50,217 nucleotides of DNA from an uncultured archaeon. Lineage in GTDB: Archaea; Asgardarchaeota; Heimdallarchaeia; Heimdallarchaeales; Kariarchaeaceae. The position numbers and the translations under genes were made by a program. Shown in pieces: positions 6,671-48,440 of the stretch (its first letter is position 1; each line of letters begins with the position of its first letter). Location of the stretch: positions 1-50,217 of the forward strand of contig CAZYCQ010000019.1 of assembly GCA_964645535.1 (NCBI GenBank), read 5' to 3'. The notes beneath the pieces were generated by a model, which worked only from the letters and a program-made list of their open reading frames with translations, did no database searches and was not told the origin of the DNA.

Positions 6671-6997
6671 TTGAAAATGCTCTCTCGAGGAAACTTTACG
6701 CAGATTTTGGATTCACTTATGAGTCATAAAGGGGTATATGCAGTAGTGATAGCCAGTGCAGAAGGCTTTCCACTCACCTTCAGGTCAAGGGATGGAAATT
6801 TCTCTGCCGATGACGCTGAACGAACCGCCGCACTTTTTTCAGCATTGGTTGGTCGGGCTCAAAATGCCGTAAGACAAATTGATCGTGGTGAAGTCAATTT
6901 TTTCACTATCGATATTACTACAGGTGAGATTCTTGTGGCATTGGAAGATGAATATGTCGTGATCGCAATCCGAGACAAAAAGGCGAATCCGGTCTGA
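6671..6997 (+). CDS. Roadblock/LC7 domain protein (MglB-like)
   Basis: GVYAVVIASAEGFPL...AERTAALFSAL...GEVNFFTI...GEILV; about 108 aa; directly upstream of a small GTPase. Confidence 0.85.
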   Translation: MKMLSRGNFTQILDSLMSHKGVYAVVIASAEGFPLTFRSRDGNFSADDAERTAALFSALVGRAQNAVRQIDRGEVNFFTIDITTGEILVALEDEYVVIAIRDKKANPV

Positions 6998-39560: not shown

Positions 39561-40799
39561 ATTATGCAGACGCGAAAGGGCGGCCTTTCTATGACCGTCC
39601 AACCCCTCTGACTTTGCTATCAACGATGAGATTTCAATTAATTCAGTGGGATTCCTAATTTCTTGGAATGTTACAATCTTGATGAAATCCTTGACAGAAA
39701 GACCACCTGTATACCTTGCAACTCCATCCGTCGGTAACACATGGTTTGGACCAGAACAATAGTCTCCAAAAACCTCGGCAGAGGCATTCCCAATGAACAA
39801 TGATCCAAAATTGGTTATCTTCTCAAGAATCATGTTCGGATCTTCGACCATCAATTCCAAATGCTCAGGAGCCTTCTGATTCACAATTGTTTCAACTCCT
39901 TGTAATTTTGGACAAACAATGATCATTCCTTGGGCTATCGATTCTTTCGCGATTTCATGTGTTGCCAATGATGAGAGTTGGTACTCAAGCTCATTCAGTA
40001 TTTTCTTTCCCAGTTTATTGCAACAAACGATAGCATTTGCCTCGGCATTTACATCATGTTCTGCTTGCGCTAATAGATCTGCCGCTACAAGTCTCGGATC
40101 TGCCGTGCAATCTGTCACAACCATGACTTCTGAGGGGCCCGCAAGAAAATCTATTCCCACTTTACCATAGACCTCTCGTTTGGCGGCAGTTACGTACTTA
40201 TTGCCAGGCCCTACAATTTTGTCCACCTGAGGTATGCTTTCTGTTCCATAAGCCAATGCTCCAATTGCCTGTACTCCTCCAATCCTCAAAATCTTTGTAG
40301 CTCCCGCAATATCCGCTGCAACGATTGTCTCTGGTTTAATTTTTGGGGAACAGACTATGATTTCTTTTACCCCTGCCACTCGGGCAGGAATCACCGTCAT
40401 CAAAGCTGTTGAAGGAAGCGGATAATTCCCTCCAGGAACATAGCAACCAACCCTTTGTAAAGGAATGATTTTATGACCTATGATCCCGAATTCCGTTTTC
40501 ATCTCCTTCGTTTGAAACATGGACATCTGTAATCGGGCAAAGGATTCAATATTTGTAGCCGCTTTCTTCAAAGCTTGCACTAACTCACCATCAACCTTCT
40601 CATATGCTTGTTTAATCTCTTCTTCTTTAACAATGAAATCACTTCCTGAAAACCCATCAAACTGTTGGGAATATTCTCTTACCGCTTCATCCCCTCTCTC
40701 CCTTACATCCTTGAGAATTTGGCGAACACCTCCCGGTACTTCAATATTGGATCGATTAAACCAGCTTTCAGGAATATCCTTGAAATTCACGATTTTCAT
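39555..40799 (-). CDS. hisD: Histidinol dehydrogenase
   Basis: GCYVPGG, GGVQAI, GPGNKYV, GPSEV, QAEHD, APEHLEL, GDYCSGPNHVLPT; ATGA overlap with the upstream gene. Confidence 0.96.
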   Translation of the reverse strand: MKIVNFKDIPESWFNRSNIEVPGGVRQILKDVRERGDEAVREYSQQFDGFSGSDFIVKEEEIKQAYEKVDGELVQALKKAATNIESFARLQMSMFQTKEMKTEFGIIGHKIIPLQRVGCYVPGGNYPLPSTALMTVIPARVAGVKEIIVCSPKIKPETIVAADIAGATKILRIGGVQAIGALAYGTESIPQVDKIVGPGNKYVTAAKREVYGKVGIDFLAGPSEVMVVTDCTADPRLVAADLLAQAEHDVNAEANAIVCCNKLGKKILNELEYQLSSLATHEIAKESIAQGMIIVCPKLQGVETIVNQKAPEHLELMVEDPNMILEKITNFGSLFIGNASAEVFGDYCSGPNHVLPTDGVARYTGGLSVKDFIKIVTFQEIRNPTELIEISSLIAKSEGLDGHRKAALSRLHNL

Positions 40800-42049
40800 G
40801 ACCTTCTCCTCCATAACTCATTTTCAATCTCACTCAACCTAATACCATGCTTGACAAGATACGTGACAAAAAAATACATCAAATCCGCAGCTTCCCAAAT
40901 CAGGTTTTTCCTATCTGTGTGTTCCAGCAATTCTGAAAGCTCTTCGCGTAACTTTTCCTCAATCAAACCCGGCTCTGTCAAAACCCTTTGGGTGTACGAT
41001 CCAATTTTCGTTGGACCTTCTTTTCGATCCTGAATTATTCGTTCCAATTCCTTGACTGAAAACTTTGTCTCATTGAAACAGGTTTTGGTGCCGGTGTGAC
41101 ACGCATTTCCATTTTGGTTGACCACAAAAAGCAGAGTATCCCGATCGCAATCATACCTTGCCTTCACCAATTTCTGGAGGTTTCCTGAACTTTCACCTTT
41201 TTTCCACAGACTGCCTCTAGATCTGCTGAAATAAACTGCATAATGGTCTCTTTGATCCCATTCATCTCCCAATGTCTCCTTTAATGATTCCTGACTTGAG
41301 TACGCGACCATCAGAACTTTCCCGGTTCCTTCTTCCTGAACCACTGTTGGAACCAATCCGTTATTCTTCTCGAAATCAATCAACGAAACAAATGCATCTG
41401 TCAATCTTATTGTCGAGGTATACAATGCCATTCCTATTTGTGAGTTGATGTTTTCGTTTTCCAATTGCTTGATCTCCTCAATTGAGGAAATCCCTCCTGC
41501 ATAGGTCAACTGATTTTCCGTTTTGCTTTTGATCAACTTTGCCATTTCAAGATTGATCCCTTCAAGCTTTCCTTCCCGCTGGACATCTGTAAATAGAAAT
41601 TCATTGCAATAATCCTGCAATTCAATTGCTCGATCCAATGGGTTCTGATGAACGGTTTGTTTCCACCCATGTGTGGCAATATTTTTTCCTTTCATGTCAA
41701 GGGCAACTATTACCCTTTCTTTATTAAATGAAGAAAGAAATTCTGGGTCTGCCTTTGTCCCCACGATGATCTTCTTTGCTCCTGCAAGCAGGATTTCATC
41801 ACCTTCTTCAATTGTCCTTATCCCTCCTCCGACCCTGCATTCCGCCAAGGTGCAAATCTGTGCAATCAGATCTCTATTTTCTCCCTTTCCTAAGGCCGCA
41901 TCAAGATCTATGACCGCAAGCTCTCCATAACGATTGAAACCCTTGGCAATCATGACTGGATCGTCTCTTTCAACCTTGATCATCTGTTCATTGCCATTCA
42001 CCAATTGAACAGCTTTACCGTTCATCAAGTCAATACTCGGAATTATCAT
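40796..42049 (-). CDS. hisA: Fused HisA-HisI-HisE (ProFAR isomerase + PR-AMP cyclohydrolase + PR-ATP pyrophosphatase)
   Basis: N-terminal IIPSIDL..GKAVQL, DLDAA, VGGGIR; middle GLVPTVVQ...SRSR..LWKKGESSGN...DCDRD...ACHTG..TCF; C-terminal SYT...KLREE...WEAADLMY. Confidence 0.9.
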   Translation of the reverse strand: MIIPSIDLMNGKAVQLVNGNEQMIKVERDDPVMIAKGFNRYGELAVIDLDAALGKGENRDLIAQICTLAECRVGGGIRTIEEGDEILLAGAKKIIVGTKADPEFLSSFNKERVIVALDMKGKNIATHGWKQTVHQNPLDRAIELQDYCNEFLFTDVQREGKLEGINLEMAKLIKSKTENQLTYAGGISSIEEIKQLENENINSQIGMALYTSTIRLTDAFVSLIDFEKNNGLVPTVVQEEGTGKVLMVAYSSQESLKETLGDEWDQRDHYAVYFSRSRGSLWKKGESSGNLQKLVKARYDCDRDTLLFVVNQNGNACHTGTKTCFNETKFSVKELERIIQDRKEGPTKIGSYTQRVLTEPGLIEEKLREELSELLEHTDRKNLIWEAADLMYFFVTYLVKHGIRLSEIENELWRRRS

Positions 42050-42813
42050 TTTAGTTCCTCCAAACGTATGGGAATCCCTTCCTCCTTCAATCTCCATTTC
42101 AGCGTACCTATTGAAATTTCATTGTAATGGAAGATTGAAGCAGCCAATGCTCCAGTAACCTCCGTTTCCTTGAACAGATCAATAAAATCATCCACTGTTC
42201 CGCCTCCTCCTGATGCAATAATCGGAATGCCCACTGTCTCCGATACTGCTCGATAAAGCTCAATATCAAATCCCGTTTTTGTCCCATCCCGATCGATGGA
42301 TGTAAGGAGAATTTCTCCCGCACCTAAAGATTCAACTTCTGCAAGCCATTCCAATGCATCCCATTTGGTTCGGGTTCTCCCTCCGTGGGTATAGACCTTC
42401 CATTTCCCCTTTTCTTTCTTGACATCAACTGCAACGACAATACATTGGCTTCCAAAAAGCTTTGCCCCTTCTTCAATTAGGTTCGGATTGGAAACAGTCG
42501 CTGAATTGATGGAAATTTTATCGGCACCTGCTGAAAGTATTTTGCTCATATCCTCGATGGATTTGATGCCTCCTCCAATGGTAAAAGGAATGAAAATTTT
42601 CTGGGCAATCCTGCCAATCAAGTCCAAAAGAAGTGGCTGATTGTCAGAAGTGGCTGTTATGTCCAAATAGACCAATTCATCTGCTCCTTTTCTCCAATAG
42701 GTACTGCCCAGATTGACCGGGTCACCTGCATCCCTTAAATCTGCAAAATTTATTCCCTTGACAACACGTCCATTTGTTACATCAAGACAGGGAATGATCC
42801 TTTTTGTTAACAT
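42046..42813 (-). CDS. hisF: Imidazole glycerol phosphate synthase cyclase subunit
   Basis: [57 protein letters not shown]. Confidence 0.97.
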
Positions 42814-43421: not shown

Positions 43422-44008
43422 GATATCACTCCTTTGGTACTTGGAATCTCCTCTCCAATTCGTTTGTCCTTTTGACATGCTTGCTTCATGGCCTTGGCAA
43501 ATGCCTTGAAAATCGCTTCTAGTTTATGGTGGTCATTCTTCCCCGATAAAAGGCGTATCGCAATATTTGCCCCTAACGAATTTGCCAAGGCCTCGAAAAA
43601 GTGTTCCGTCAGATCAGAATCAAAATCTCCACAGAAACGCCTCCGGAATTCCACATCAAATTGCAGATACGGTCTTCCACTCAAATCCACCGCAACTTGG
43701 GCAAGCGCATCGTCCATTGGATAGAGAAAGAACCCTGCTCTTTCAATTCCTCTCTTGTCACCCAATGCCTTCCTTAGCGTTTCGCCCAGAACCAAGGCAA
43801 TATCCTCAACAGTGTGGTGTTGATCGACCTCAAGATCCCCTTGGGCTTCAATATCGATATCTATGAGGCTGTGCTTACTGAAGGCTTCTATCATATGTTT
43901 AAGAAAACCAATGGGTACCTTGATGCTTGATTTTCCTGATCCATCTATCTTGACCCATGCCCTGACTTCCGTTTCATTGGTTTTTCGGTATGTAGTGGCT
44001 TCTCTCAT
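43418..44008 (-). CDS. hisB: Imidazoleglycerol-phosphate dehydratase
   Basis: RKTNET, GFLKHM, DQHHTVED, PMDDA, NDHHKLEAIFKA, PSTKG. Confidence 0.96.
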   Translation of the reverse strand: MREATTYRKTNETEVRAWVKIDGSGKSSIKVPIGFLKHMIEAFSKHSLIDIDIEAQGDLEVDQHHTVEDIALVLGETLRKALGDKRGIERAGFFLYPMDDALAQVAVDLSGRPYLQFDVEFRRRFCGDFDSDLTEHFFEALANSLGANIAIRLLSGKNDHHKLEAIFKAFAKAMKQACQKDKRIGEEIPSTKGVIS

Positions 44009-45678
44009 AAGATCTCCTCCATCTTGTTGAGATTGGGGATGGTTTTCACCTCTCCAAAAGTCGTAGTTTCAGAAACAAGAATTGGGGTTATTCCCGCCCT
44101 TTTTGCTGCCATCACATCATTGATTGTATCTCCGAAATAATACCCACGTTTGGCCTTCAGAACAGCAAGGGCTTTGCGTATCCCTTCCGGATCAGGTTTG
44201 TCTTCATATACATCATCCAAGGAAATGACAACATGGAACATGTCAAATCCAAATCTTTCACATGCCCATTCTACCTCCTCCTTTGGACGTCCTGTAACGA
44301 TTCCCATTCTATACCGTTGTGAAAGAGTAGAAAGAATCCGCTTGTCAATAAGGGGCTCTTCGTTGAATCTGAACCCGGGATCATACAGATAGGCTTTCTG
44401 AAAGAATTTCTTCACCTCCTCGAAGGAAACAGTTGCAGTTTCCGATATGAGCGCAGAAGTAACTTTCCAATCACTGTTGTACCCGGGTTTCTCCCTCCAT
44501 CTTTGGATATCCTTGTCTTGGATTTTTCTTCCGGTAAACCTTTCCACCACGTACTTAATCGTTCGGTCATAGGATTTGCGGACATCAACAAGGACTCCGT
44601 CCATGTCAAATATCAACACGGGTTCCTCAAGAATTTCCTGCAATGTTCTGACAAATCTTTTCATAATTTGAAGGGGGCCGATCGTAATCCTGCTGTATCC
44701 CTCTAATTGCTTCTGGTTAGATCTATCCCGTATGAGTATCCCTTTTTGCTCCAGTTTCTTGCAAATCCATTTGTTGATCGTTCCAAAACGTACCAACAGA
44801 AAATTTGCATAGGAAGGGAAAACCTCAATTGACATTTCTCTCAATTGATTCATTACCCATCTTCTGGACTGCTTTACTTCCTCAACGTATCTTTCAACAA
44901 ATGGGATGTCCTTCAATGCAGCTTTCACTGCGTGGACTGCCAATGAGTTTACATTATAGGGTGGTGCCATGATTTTCAGTTGGTAGGCTATCTCCTTATT
45001 CGTATATGCATATCCAATCCTCAGTCCTGCAAGTCCAAATGCTTTTGAAAAAGTTTTCAGCACTATCAGCCTACGATCAGATTTCACCAAATCTGCATAA
45101 CTGTTGATGCCAAATTCCCCATATGCCTCATCAATCACAATAACTGTTTCTGGACACTTTCTCTCTAGCTCTTCGATAAGATATTCTGGCTCCGGAATTG
45201 CACTGCCGGTTGGATTGTTTGGATCTGATAGAATAACGACTTTTGGCTTCTCTCTAACTGCGACTTGCACAATTTCCTCGACTGGAAATGAAAAATCTTC
45301 TTCCAATGGCACCTCAATGATTTCCGCCTCCTTGAGCTGTCCATAAAAATGATACATCGAAAAGGTTGGAACAACTGTCAATACTTTCTGTCCTTTCCCT
45401 AGCAGGACATCAAAGATGAGCCTCAATCCATCGTCAATCCCTGCGGTTAGAACAAGACCTTCGCGATCCAAATCAAGAGACTCGGCCAATTGATCATATA
45501 GGTCATCATACGAGGGGTAAGTCGACAAATCCTCAAATCCGACTTCCTGAAGGGATCTGTAAACTAAAGATGAAGGACCTCGGAGATTTTCATTGAAATC
45601 AAGTCTCACAAACCTTTGCCTTCTTTCTAAAGGTGGGTTGTAGCCGACAAACCTCTCTGTTTGCGAAATTCCAGTCAT
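44005..45678 (-). CDS. hisC: Histidinol-phosphate aminotransferase fused to a HAD-family phosphatase
   Basis: LDFNEN, PNNPTG, DEAY, KTFSKAFGLAGLRIG; C-terminal FDMDGVL, VTGRP, KPDP, GDTIND. Confidence 0.93.
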   Translation of the reverse strand: MTGISQTERFVGYNPPLERRQRFVRLDFNENLRGPSSLVYRSLQEVGFEDLSTYPSYDDLYDQLAESLDLDREGLVLTAGIDDGLRLIFDVLLGKGQKVLTVVPTFSMYHFYGQLKEAEIIEVPLEEDFSFPVEEIVQVAVREKPKVVILSDPNNPTGSAIPEPEYLIEELERKCPETVIVIDEAYGEFGINSYADLVKSDRRLIVLKTFSKAFGLAGLRIGYAYTNKEIAYQLKIMAPPYNVNSLAVHAVKAALKDIPFVERYVEEVKQSRRWVMNQLREMSIEVFPSYANFLLVRFGTINKWICKKLEQKGILIRDRSNQKQLEGYSRITIGPLQIMKRFVRTLQEILEEPVLIFDMDGVLVDVRKSYDRTIKYVVERFTGRKIQDKDIQRWREKPGYNSDWKVTSALISETATVSFEEVKKFFQKAYLYDPGFRFNEEPLIDKRILSTLSQRYRMGIVTGRPKEEVEWACERFGFDMFHVVISLDDVYEDKPDPEGIRKALAVLKAKRGYYFGDTINDVMAAKRAGITPILVSETTTFGEVKTIPNLNKMEEIL

Positions 45679-46649
45679 TTCCTGATGCCTCCAATACTGT
45701 CAAGCAGATTGCGATATTGAGGAGGTTCTTCCTCGAAAATGTAGGTCGTAGGAGTAACTACCACTCCTGATCCTCCTACCTCTCTCAGACTTTCAATCGC
45801 CTTCATCAGAATCTTTTTCGGCACAACAACGTGGATTGCAAACCATGGTTCCATGTCTTGATTGAAAATCGCCGAAACCGTAGGGCCTTGGAGACCGTTC
45901 AATCCGGATTTGGATATCAGCTCGGGAATTACCCTTTCCGGGGTTCCTCTCATATTGGCATAAACTGAAACAAAATCCATGCCCCGTAAGGTACCCTCAA
46001 AAAGCTCCAAGAGCTGCTTTGCCACCTTCATGGCTTCCTGATCGGTTCTAAGCATCCTTGCATTGGCTATTAAAACTGCCTCAGAATCCAAAATCCGACC
46101 TCCTTCCAACCTTTTCAGCCTGTTGTCCTCCAAGGTCTGACCAGTTGAGACAAGATCGACTATGAAATCTGCCTTGCCCAAGGCAGGTGAAACCTCCAAC
46201 GTGCCGGCAGAGGATACAAATTCGAAAGATATTTCCCTTTCTCTCAAAAAGTCTGACGTCAGTCTGGGAAACTTCGAGGCAACACGAAATGGGTTTCCAT
46301 TGCCTTTTCCTTTGAGTTCTTCAATGCTGGATATTTCCCAAGCTTCGGGAACTGCAACTTCCAAAGTACATTTCCCAAATCCAAGACCTTCATGGACAAT
46401 GATAAGTTCATTGCCTTCTCTCAATTCCATGACGAGATCCTTGCCGACAATGCCAAAGGTCAGAAATCCTGTCTCCACACCCTTTACAATATCTTCTTGA
46501 CGCTGATATACTACCTGAAGGTTGGGAAACTCATCCAAACTCGCCAAATATCTTCTTCTTACCCGTCGGAGTGTAAGACCGCATCGATCAATGAATTCTG
46601 CAGTCTCAATCTCCATTCTCCCTTTACTTGGTATGCCTAATCTGATCAT
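45675..46649 (-). CDS. hisG: ATP phosphoribosyltransferase (long form)
   Basis: GIPSKGRM, GIVGKD, GFGKCTL.VAVP, ADFIVDLVSTGQTL..NRL, C-terminal GPTVS regulatory domain; ATG 46649 with GGTGA RBS. Confidence 0.95.
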   Translation of the reverse strand: MIRLGIPSKGRMEIETAEFIDRCGLTLRRVRRRYLASLDEFPNLQVVYQRQEDIVKGVETGFLTFGIVGKDLVMELREGNELIIVHEGLGFGKCTLEVAVPEAWEISSIEELKGKGNGNPFRVASKFPRLTSDFLREREISFEFVSSAGTLEVSPALGKADFIVDLVSTGQTLEDNRLKRLEGGRILDSEAVLIANARMLRTDQEAMKVAKQLLELFEGTLRGMDFVSVYANMRGTPERVIPELISKSGLNGLQGPTVSAIFNQDMEPWFAIHVVVPKKILMKAIESLREVGGSGVVVTPTTYIFEEEPPQYRNLLDSIGGIRK

Positions 46650-46713
46650 AAAATCACCAAAAGAACTTTGTCTGCTCTTGATCAAAACGGAGGGACGGCG
46701 CATGAACCTTATG

Positions 46714-46746
46714 TCATCTGCATATGTGAACACAATCACCTAGCAT
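46714..46746 (-). CDS. Putative his leader peptide 2 (MLGDCVHICR)
   Basis: AAGGAGGT SD, 6 nt spacer, ATG CTA GGT GAT TGT GTT CAC ATA TGC AGA TGA. Confidence 0.55.
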   Translation of the reverse strand: MLGDCVHICR

Positions 46747-46760
46747 GCTTGCACCTCCTT

Positions 46761-46850
46761 AAAAAAAGCAAAAAACATGAGGTTACCTGAGAGCAGCATG
46801 GAACAAGACTATTTACGATGAACGTAATCACTGCTCATTGTGAAACCTCA
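46761..46850 (-). promoter_or_regulatory. Putative attenuator hairpin plus U-tract in the his operon leader
   Basis: Minus strand: UGAGGUU/AACCUCA, GAGCAG/CUGCUC and UUACG/CGUAA nested stems, followed by UUUUUUGCUUUUUUU. Confidence 0.55.
46809..46838 (-). CDS. Putative his leader peptide 1 (MSSDYVHRK)
   Basis: TGAGGT SD, 6 nt spacer, ATG AGC AGT GAT TAC GTT CAT CGT AAA TAG. Confidence 0.5.
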   Translation of the reverse strand: MSSDYVHRK

Positions 46851-47222
46851 ATTCAGAACCCATTTCATTTGAATAAAAAGATGCAGGTTCTGCCCTTTTG
46901 ACTTCACCCCAATTATTGGTAGTCTTGTCCTGTGCACCCCTGATTTAATGTATGCTCCTCACACCTGACCATATGATTCCATTTTCTGTTTTCCTGTCTT
47001 CAATGTCAACCTTTGAATGTCTTAAGGCAGATCTGGAGAAAAAATGATATATGGTGGTGAGAATTTTCAATTATTTTCAATTATTTCCACTTACTTTTCA
47101 CTTCTTCATACAGCAGAACAAATCCATCTCAAGATTCAAAAATTGAACTTTATCTCCAAAAATTACCCAACAAAGTTGGCCTCCAACTAGCAGTTTAATT
47201 GGACACATTGCCCTCCTGATCT

Positions 47223-48440
47223 GTGGAGAAAGAATTAAAGGAGAGGAAAAGCCCTCTCTGGGTTTACTATCTTATCCAAATGAGTTTTGCCTTTTCTCAA
47301 AATCTCGCCTTTCAGTACATTCCTCTCTTCAACAAAAAACTCGGGGCAAATGAAATTGAAATGGGGTTGATGACTGCTGTACAAAATGTTTTCTCAACAG
47401 CATTCAGCCCTTTTTGGGGAAGAATATCTGATGCACACGGAAGGAAACTTTTCCTCCTCCTAGGGTCGTTTATTGCAACTGCAAGCGCAGGAACCCTTAC
47501 ATTCGCAAAAAATCCTCTTCAAGTCATCGTTTCGATTGCCGTCAATTCATTCGGTCTTTCCATGTTAGTTCCAGCATGGCAAGGAGCTTTGGCCGATTAT
47601 ACAGAAGGAAGCAAACGAGGTGGATTCATGGGAAGAATAACCGGTGTCGCATATCTTTATGTGACCATTACTCTTGCCCTCTACTCTTTCGTTGCTCCTT
47701 TACTGGAAATAACTGAAATCCAACAGTACAGGGTTATTATGGCAACTTCGGCAGTAAATTTCCTTATCATGGTCGTACTGTCCTGGATACTGATTGATCT
47801 TAAAGATCCAAATGGACGGAATAGAGAATACAGCCTTCTAGCTTCTCTCCGTGATCGTATTTACAGAAGATTTCTTGCCGTCATTCTCTTCTGGTGGTTC
47901 TGGATGAGCCTTGCTTGGAGCTACTTCCCCACAGTAATTGCGGTCGTCATCGATGCAAGCGTTTCTGAGGTTGCGTGGATAGCCATCACTGGGACTGTTG
48001 TCCAAGCTATTGCTTCCTACAGGATGGGGTCGCTCATTGATAGAATCGGGGAAAGAAGATCCATAATTTACGGATTCATTACATTCACAATTGTGCCCCT
48101 CAATTTTGCCTTTGCAACCGAATGGTGGCACCTCATTCCTGCCCAAATTATTGCAGGTGTCGGCATTGGGTTTGGCTTCACTGCCCTGCAGACCTATATC
48201 CTCGAAATTGCTGGCTCCGAAAAAGCTGGAAACTATCAAGGAACCTACAATCTGTTATGGGGTGCTTTGACATTTGTCGGCTCCTATTTCGGAGGATGGT
48301 TCCTGCAATGGCTCAAAGGAACCGTGGGTTCACTCCCGCTTGCCCTCACCTACGCACTGCTCATCGTGACCGTATTGCGGTTCTTCTCTAATTTCATCAT
48401 GTACTTCTTTCTACCAGATCCCTATCCGAAGCAAGAATAA
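47223..48440 (+). CDS. MFS transporter
   Basis: About 12 TM helices; motif A GRISDAHGRK and its repeat GSLIDRIGER. Confidence 0.92.
   Translation: MEKELKERKSPLWVYYLIQMSFAFSQNLAFQYIPLFNKKLGANEIEMGLMTAVQNVFSTAFSPFWGRISDAHGRKLFLLLGSFIATASAGTLTFAKNPLQVIVSIAVNSFGLSMLVPAWQGALADYTEGSKRGGFMGRITGVAYLYVTITLALYSFVAPLLEITEIQQYRVIMATSAVNFLIMVVLSWILIDLKDPNGRNREYSLLASLRDRIYRRFLAVILFWWFWMSLAWSYFPTVIAVVIDASVSEVAWIAITGTVVQAIASYRMGSLIDRIGERRSIIYGFITFTIVPLNFAFATEWWHLIPAQIIAGVGIGFGFTALQTYILEIAGSEKAGNYQGTYNLLWGALTFVGSYFGGWFLQWLKGTVGSLPLALTYALLIVTVLRFFSNFIMYFFLPDPYPKQE

Follow-up and report, generated by a model that had tools for sequence, protein, structure and literature searches.

In enterobacteria, the leader of the his operon, hisL (RF00514), encodes a leader peptide with a run of seven His codons and can form alternative 1:2, 2:3 and 3:4 hairpins. 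The bacterial prfB gene, which codes for release factor 2 (RF2), is autoregulated by a programmed +1 frameshift at a site that contains the following elements: (i) an SD-like element at a strained, short spacing; (ii) a UAU spacer; (iii) an NUU codon in the P site; and (iv) a slow A-site codon which, in this case, is a stop codon read by RF2. In eukaryotes, antizyme synthesis depends on a +1 shift at a stop codon, stimulated by polyamines and by a pseudoknot or the nascent peptide, and provides negative feedback. Finally, in the "hungry codon" frameshifting of the laboratory, associated with the names of Gallant, Lindsley and Weiss, the P-site tRNA reportedly slips if no cognate aminoacyl-tRNA is available for the A-site codon.

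The locus described here is the leader of a histidine biosynthesis (his) operon in an Asgard archaeal MAG, whose DNA was found only in metagenome runs of one hot-spring study, with no RNA run among them. It was analyzed within a stretch of 50,217 nucleotides, hereafter the window. Two short ORFs, uORF1 and uORF2, precede the first his gene, and their layout is closest to that of the prfB frameshift site. As in prfB, (i) the cassette consists of an SD-like element, a 3-nt Y-R-Y spacer, an NUU P-site codon and a slow A-site codon (slow decoding of the His codon being assumed here); (ii) the short zero-frame ORF ends just past the shift site; and (iii) the +1 frame codes for the very product that would lift the pause once it is supplied. 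One related genome, G007, has UAC-CUU and then the slow codon. Nevertheless, the slow codon of the his leader is a sense codon read by an aminoacyl-tRNA, its SD-like element stands in the register that is optimal for initiation (GGTGA plus 4 nt), and the leader, which is archaeal, has two cassettes in series.

With hisL, the leader shares a short ORF provided with an SD and a His codon directly before the first his gene, a terminator-like stem and U-tract downstream (in the subclade of the window) and, according to the proposal made here, the use of the translating ribosome as a sensor of charged tRNA-His. It differs from hisL in having one His codon per ORF, no conserved alternative hairpins and no Rfam match, and its read-out is apparently a change of frame. 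As regards antizyme, in both cases the efficiency of frameshifting would be the sensor in a metabolic feedback and the product would need the +1 shift, but in the his leader a shortage of the metabolite would switch biosynthesis on. Hungry-codon frameshifting has been described as an error or as a phenomenon of experiments, and the same P-site slip is proposed here for the his leader.

A review of recoding stated that there were no known examples of starvation-specific transframe proteins (2016; PMC5009743), and a later review lists a single -1 frameshift case for Archaea (2021; PMC8211752). For archaea, our literature search found neither leader peptides nor frameshifts controlling amino-acid biosynthesis, and no publication describing this amino-acid-sensing frameshift leader. 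If the reading put forward here is true, it would be (i) the first natural hungry-codon frameshifting used as a regulatory switch; and (ii) the first regulatory +1 frameshift in Archaea. Reading-frame maintenance itself would then be the sensor of charged tRNA, linking attenuation and the prfB frameshift, and the leader would constitute a compact, portable amino-acid switch.

The his Operon and Its Upstream ORFs

The his operon of the window has the gene order hisG, hisC-HAD, hisB, hisH, hisF, hisA-hisIE and hisD. Between hisG and a divergent MFS transporter gene, which starts at 47223, there are 573 bp of intergenic DNA. The HisC aminotransferase is fused to a HAD phosphatase (44005-45678, minus strand), a fusion that recurs in related loci and whose HAD part is likely the histidinol-phosphatase; HisA, in turn, is fused to HisI and HisE (40796-42097, minus strand).

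Both short ORFs are as described in an earlier reading of the DNA made by a model from the letters only (hereafter, the sequence-only reading). On the minus strand, they encode MSSDYVHRK and MLGDCVHICR, respectively, and the features which that reading attributed to them were found again, i.e., a GAGGT located exactly 6 nt 5' of each ATG and the residues D4, V6 and H7 common to both peptides. Upstream of uORF1 there is a candidate promoter; a TATA-like element is present 40-53 nt before the uORF1 start in 8/11 loci, a position that would fit a transcript starting just before the SD of uORF1. Table 1 compiles the elements of the leader.

Table 1. Positions in the window of the his operon and of the elements of its leader.
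Feature	Positions	Strand	Remarks
his operon	46649 down to 39555	minus	Complete, overlapping genes; hisG first
hisG	45675..46649	minus	Long-form ATP phosphoribosyltransferase, 324 aa from ATG 46649; Pfam HisG and HisG_C
Own SD of hisG, GGTGAT	46653..46658	minus	3 nt before ATG 46649
Candidate promoter, TATA-like box TTTTTAT	46873..46879	minus	41 nt 5' of uORF1 start
SD of uORF1, TGAGGTT	46844..46850	minus	Doubles as 5' arm of outer stem; GAGGT at 46849-46845
uORF1, MSSDYVHRK and TAG	46809..46838	minus	ATG 46838; motif AGTGATTACGTTCAT at 46832-46818
P-site codon GTT of uORF1	46823-46821	minus
His codon CAT of uORF1	46820-46818	minus
+1 frame of uORF1	46736..46822	minus	From TTC 46822, open 27 codons
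Inner stem of uORF1 hairpin, GAGCAG/CTGCTC	46836-46831/46796-46791	minus	Predicted fold
Anti-SD mimic AACCTCA	46778..46784	minus	3' stem arm sequestering SD of uORF1 (TGAGGTT 46850-46844) in predicted fold
T6 and T7 tracts	46761..46775	minus	T6 46775-46770, T7 46767-46761; oligo-T of the archaeal intrinsic-terminator type; Phe/Leu codons in +1 frame
SD of uORF2, GGAGGTG	46752..46758	minus	GGAGG core ends 7 nt before ATG; GAGGT at 46756-46752
uORF2, MLGDCVHICR and TGA	46714..46746	minus	ATG 46746; motif GGTGATTGTGTTCAC at 46740-46726
SD-like GGTGA of uORF2	46740-46736	minus
P-site codon GTT of uORF2	46731-46729	minus
His codon CAC of uORF2	46728-46726	minus
hisG-frame extension	46650..46739	minus	+1 frame of uORF2; 30 open codons, GTG 46739 to hisG ATG
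CCCTCC, anti-SD mimic, then T4	46684..46694	minus	CCCTCC at 46694-46689, able to pair with SD of uORF2; analogues in L029 and L030

In public gene calls, HisG has 354 aa and starts at GTG 46739 (45675-46739, minus strand), and the HisG proteins of relatives are given N-termini that are either extended or truncated. Since gene callers extend or truncate this N-terminus, the leader has been hidden, masked in annotation as a variable HisG N-terminal extension or a truncated gene.

Conservation of the Cassette

The cassette occurs in 13 loci with 24 uORFs, either as a tandem pair or, if uORF1 is missing or cut off, as uORF2 by itself. These loci correspond to (i) the window; (ii) five genomes of its class, two of them from the same genus (G001 and G002) and three from other genera and a second family (G006, G007 and G014); and (iii) seven public-assembly contigs fetched via HisG homologues, which could be found because gene callers give HisG an x-x-F-T N-terminus or a truncated start. 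The closest public HisG loci carry the titles Promethearchaeati, Promethearchaeia or Promethearchaeota. HisG is present in only 12/83 genomes of the class and, wherever hisG heads the operon among them, the leader is also present. The HisG proteins of the relatives with the leader are just 50-71% identical.

Alignment of the 13 loci yields the nucleotide core RGTGR-N4-GTT-CAY. At the peptide level, uORF1 conforms approximately to MSSDxVH, and uORF2 to MLGDxVH or MKxGExVH. The start is in frame with the motif in all 24 uORFs, each of which contains a single His codon, with the exception of uORF1 in G002 (HH) and in G007; uORF1 itself is conserved in 11 loci and its His codon is always CAT. Both the uORFs and their His codons are conserved in related his leaders. 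The two uORFs are not chance. Within the genome of the window, the motif stands in a uORF context only at the his leader (two real among four matches) and, across the class, a sequence model of the cassette (R1) ranks the his leaders top, its remaining matches being false positives in a proteasome-like coding region and a handful of cassettes with different codons.

A metagenome scan with the HisG alignment returned 80 loci, eight of which are close and have no motif within 900 nt; these eight are standalone hisG genes or hisIE-hisG operons. Two candidate leader-bearing loci, P0018 and P0075, were rejected as they have ordinary starts. A cassette match in the RNase P p30 gene, from the genome-wide scan, was a false positive with its own ATG.

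Reading-Frame Architecture

The relationship among the frames, which the sequence-only reading missed, gives the clearest signal. All 13 loci have hisG in the +1 frame of uORF2, and in every one of them this frame is open over 8-56 codons, from the GTG contained in GGTGA into hisG. Similarly, the +1 frame of uORF1 is open for 23-45 codons in 11/11 loci, across stems and U-tracts, while frame 0 is open in none of the 11 and frame +2 in two. Per-locus shuffle probabilities of such openness multiply to 10^-7.4 for uORF2 and 10^-7.9 for uORF1, values that overstate independence since the loci are related and amount to about nine lineages. Spacer length and sequence vary among these lineages.

A stop codon closes the +1 frame of uORF1 1-11 nt past the first base of the uORF2 start, with overlaps of the type ATGA, TAATG, TAG-GTG or GTGA. 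In the window, this frame spans the 3' arm of the stem and both T-tracts and ends at a TGA (46738-46736) which overlaps GTG 46739 and sits within the GGTGA of uORF2. In the zero frame, a stop codon follows the His codon after 0-4 codons in 22 of the 24 uORFs.

Depending on the start of hisG, two types of loci can be distinguished: (i) type A (seven loci, including the window), where hisG has its own SD and start codon, still in the +1 frame of uORF2, and, in consequence, frameshifting is not strictly required for HisG; and (ii) type B (G006, G007, L033, L034, L035 and L039, i.e., 6/13 loci, with a spacer of 19-37 nt), where, leaving aside the in-motif GTG, the hisG frame has no ATG, GTG or TTG after the His codon and the conserved HisG N-terminus xIRxGIPSKG is nonetheless encoded there. 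L033 lacks a start codon in the +1 frame of uORF1.

Codon Choice and SD Spacing

All 13 loci use GGT for Gly in uORF2 (genome usage: 28%), the Val codon is GTT in 12/13 and is replaced once by CTT (genome usage of GTT: 36%), and the His codon is CAC in 12/13 (genome usage: 24%). The middle codon is always Y-R-Y, encoding Cys, Tyr or Arg. Constraint thus acts on the nucleotides of the uORFs as well as on the peptide. As a GUU to UUC slip would require, the third base of the P-site codon is U and the next base is the C that opens the His codon. After a slip of GUU or CUU (plus C) to UUC, tRNA-Val(GAC) would keep two of three pairs and tRNA-Leu(GAG) three of three, counting a G.U pair; both tRNAs are encoded in the genome.

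Genome-wide, GGTGA is preferentially found 4-5 nt, and GGAGG 7 nt, before start codons (the anti-SD was deduced from these spacing statistics, as neither the 16S rRNA nor the tRNA-His is assembled in the MAG). The in-motif GGTGA lies exactly 4 nt before the P-site GTT, which is the optimum of the genome for GGTGA and ATG, and hence contact with the anti-SD would bring GTT into the P site, leaving the His codon to occupy the A site. The distance from GGAGG to the uORF2 start is 7-10 nt in 13/13 loci, whereas that from GGAGG to the in-motif GTG is 14-20 nt, where genome-wide counts are at background. A spacing that is optimal for the uORF ATG and at background for the GTG argues for initiation at the ATG.

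Hairpins, U-Tracts and RNA Families

The nested hairpin that the sequence-only reading drew around uORF1 does appear in minimum-free-energy folds, with the T6 and T7 tracts behind it, and the pairing of the uORF2 SD with CCCTCC is part of the same fold. These tracts may act in transcription termination. An anti-SD mimic of the AACCTCA type is kept in L029, L030, L033, L035 and L039, though not in every locus, and a U-tract stands immediately 5' of the uORF2 SD in 7/11 loci. The combination of a stem between SD and anti-SD mimic with a U-tract was obtained in 6/11 folds, those of the closest relatives of the window and some others; stem and U-tract are seen in the window, L029 and L030 and are not general, and fold z-scores range from -0.5 to -0.9. 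Compared with shuffled sequences, the leader folds have no extra stability (z = -0.75 for 261 nt; z = -0.9 for the uORF1 segment).

Searches of Rfam gave no match at the gathering threshold over the window, His_leader (RF00514) included, and nothing relevant at E<=10 over 46400-47400. Regarding riboswitches and T-boxes, there was no match to a known RNA family and no conserved fold for ligand or tRNA binding. A scan for sigma-70 promoters and hairpin-terminator consensus sequences is uninformative for an archaeal host. The sequence-only reading had suggested a duplicated, translation-coupled module with a single His codon, working through attenuator hairpins. Its first part stands, for the uORFs are real, duplicated, conserved and specific to the his leader. 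The hairpin attenuator lacks support in the form proposed, with a stem and U-tract in only 6/11 folds, folding energies equal to those of shuffles and no Rfam match.

A Probable Histidine-Sensing +1 Frameshift Cascade

The leader is probably (with a probability of roughly 0.65, judged from sequence features) a tandem +1 frameshift cascade that senses His-tRNA. The ribosome would load at the strong SD of a uORF of 9-10 codons. After six codons, the internal GGTGA (AGTGA in uORF1) would re-engage the anti-SD, placing GUU (Val) in the P site and the lone His codon CAY in the A site. With plentiful His-tRNA, the His codon would be decoded and translation would terminate 2-3 codons further on; the leader could then refold so as to hide its SDs, and no ribosomes would cover its oligo-U tracts. 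With scarce charged tRNA-His, the A site would remain empty and peptidyl-tRNA-Val could slip from GUU to UUC. From uORF1, +1 translation would proceed over the 3' stem arm and then the U-tracts, and end at the GUGA overlap in uORF2; from uORF2, it would lead straight into hisG and, by translational coupling, to the downstream genes. Two sensors in series would sharpen the response.

The slip, its dependence on histidine and any effect on transcription termination are what we infer from this layout. The +1 frames that are open in 24/24 uORFs, together with the 6/13 hisG genes devoid of a start codon, point to +1 frameshifting over simple stalling. Against it, tRNA-Val would keep only two of its three pairs after the slip, and the SD-like spacing of the his cassettes is not the strained, short one that drives the prfB +1 shift, and such a relaxed, initiation-like spacing places the role of the SD-like element as a stimulator in doubt.

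Leaders of the Same Layout at Other Genes

A genome scan for this layout revealed, in G000 (contig C44:24534-27610; L121), an SD, a TTG start and a 7-codon uORF with GAT CGT GAA ATT, where Ile occupies the position of the sensor codon; its +1 frame is fused to a paralogue of isoleucyl-tRNA synthetase of 1023 codons. In relatives (L123-L151), 21 loci have a leader of the form M-D-R-E-I-x-stop before ileS, with a +1 frame that extends over 27-63 open codons and ends at the ileS start. As many as 13 of the 16 distinct ileS leaders have a +1 frame without a start codon and, therefore, a separate GTG-started ORF cannot explain them.

A leader with a Leu codon is found before leuS in six genomes of four genera (L176/L193, in G034 C124; L210; L211; L216; L219; L222). 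Its peptides begin MTGECVL.., MNGECVL.. or VRDSVL.., with GTT in the P site and CTT or CTA in the A site, and its +1 frame extends over 52-96 codons, ending 11 nt after the GTG of leuS in three of the six loci (G034, G012 and G032). Elsewhere in the order, leuS mostly has an ordinary start.

In the his, ileS and leuS systems alike, the sensor codon is cognate to the downstream gene. There is somewhat better than an even chance that the Asgard archaea of this class sense amino acids with a family of ribosome-based leaders, in each of which a +1 slip takes place at a single cognate His, Ile or Leu codon held in the A site. Shortage of the charged tRNA would then divert ribosomes into the +1 frame, which either runs up to the gene whose product remedies that shortage or is fused to it.

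Alternative Explanations

The view taken in the sequence-only reading, namely that stalling at a single His codon alters the folding of the leader (through sequestration of the SD or an oligo-U terminator) with no change of frame, is unlikely. It draws on the stem between SD and anti-SD mimic that the window, L029 and L030 share around uORF1, followed by U6-U7, as well as on the anti-SD mimics downstream of uORF2. Moreover, another genome of the same genus, G003, has a 22-codon leader (L021:8758-8826) about 95 nt before its hisIE-hisG operon, with seven His among eight codons (HHHHIHHH), and such a classical His-run leader makes ribosomal sensing of His codons plausible in this clade. But not all of the 13 loci keep the stems, whose stability does not exceed that of shuffles, and a ribosome paused at codon 7 would leave the SD arm uncovered; stalling also leaves unexplained why +1 frames are open in 24/24 uORFs, why hisG is always in the +1 frame and why six loci have no hisG start. 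Even less probable is that HisG starts at the in-motif GTG, with an extension of the type M-x-x-F-T..., and that the ATG uORFs are overlapping decoys or competitors; its corollary, that the +1 ORF of uORF1 stands by itself as a small ORF started at a GTG, is improbable to the same degree. A GTG does occupy that place in 23/24 his cassettes, gene callers annotate the extended HisG forms and the +1 pentapeptide V-x-x-F-T is fairly conserved. Against this, the SD is optimally placed for the ATG, with the GTG at a distance where counts are at background, the 8-56 codons of the extensions show no sequence conservation, and the +1 frame stays open with no start codon in uORF1 of L033 and in 13/16 ileS leaders. 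Initiation at the GTG would, furthermore, leave the conserved His codon, the early zero-frame stop and the SD-provided ATG without a role.

Frameshifting at the His codon accounts for features that two further proposals, both very improbable, do not. The 14-bp dyad GTGAW-N4-WTCAC could be thought of as a two-copy operator for a transcription factor, the ORFs being incidental, given that the uORF2 motif forms an inverted repeat of 4-5 bp in all loci and that the two copies are about 85-145 bp apart. This was rejected because the dyad is not enriched genome-wide (16 found vs 16.7 expected); besides, the uORF1 copies break it (TCAT; AGGGA in L033), and the SD, start, frames and stops go unexplained. 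An arrest peptide G-D/E-x-V-H that senses free histidine through a ligand-dependent stall, in the manner of TnaC or SpeFL, would agree with the core [SG]-[DEG]-x-[VL]-H kept in the 24 uORFs. Yet the nascent chain has just 6-7 residues at this point, the choice among synonymous codons is fixed (GGT, GTT, CAC), the middle codon holds to YRY while the residue it encodes changes (C, Y or R), and the open +1 frames would again have no explanation. Delayed reinitiation of the ATF4/GCN4 kind was discarded too: the GTG is only 7-10 nt past the uORF2 ATG and the His codons would have no role.

Other Cassette-Like Sequences

Several further sequences resemble the cassettes described above. In G000 (C8:49100-50369; L153), a 5-codon uORF, MECPT-stop, has a Thr codon and a +1 frame fused to threonine synthase (thrC); this uORF is absent from the seven relatives checked, all of them with ordinary ATG starts, and may be chance or lineage-specific. 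In G013 (C173; L173:1501-1539), a real protein whose frame stays open for 244+ codons starts with MTGEYVP... The nucleotide cassette is the same, but it has a Pro codon and the frame does not change, which indicates that a cassette-like sequence can also be an ordinary N-terminus.

In G022, a sequence ending ...AAIHHHH-stop is located before hisIE (L022, ending at 6929) and, in G082, LDRVH-stop (L001:1445) has a +1 frame open for 92 codons. Finally, cassettes with a Pro codon (CCA or CCT) are present in G003 (C2; L178:1518-2253) and G004 (C109; L180:1521-2406), fused in +1 to two proteins, of 238 and 289 aa, that are homologous to each other (E = 4e-23) and have no Pfam match.
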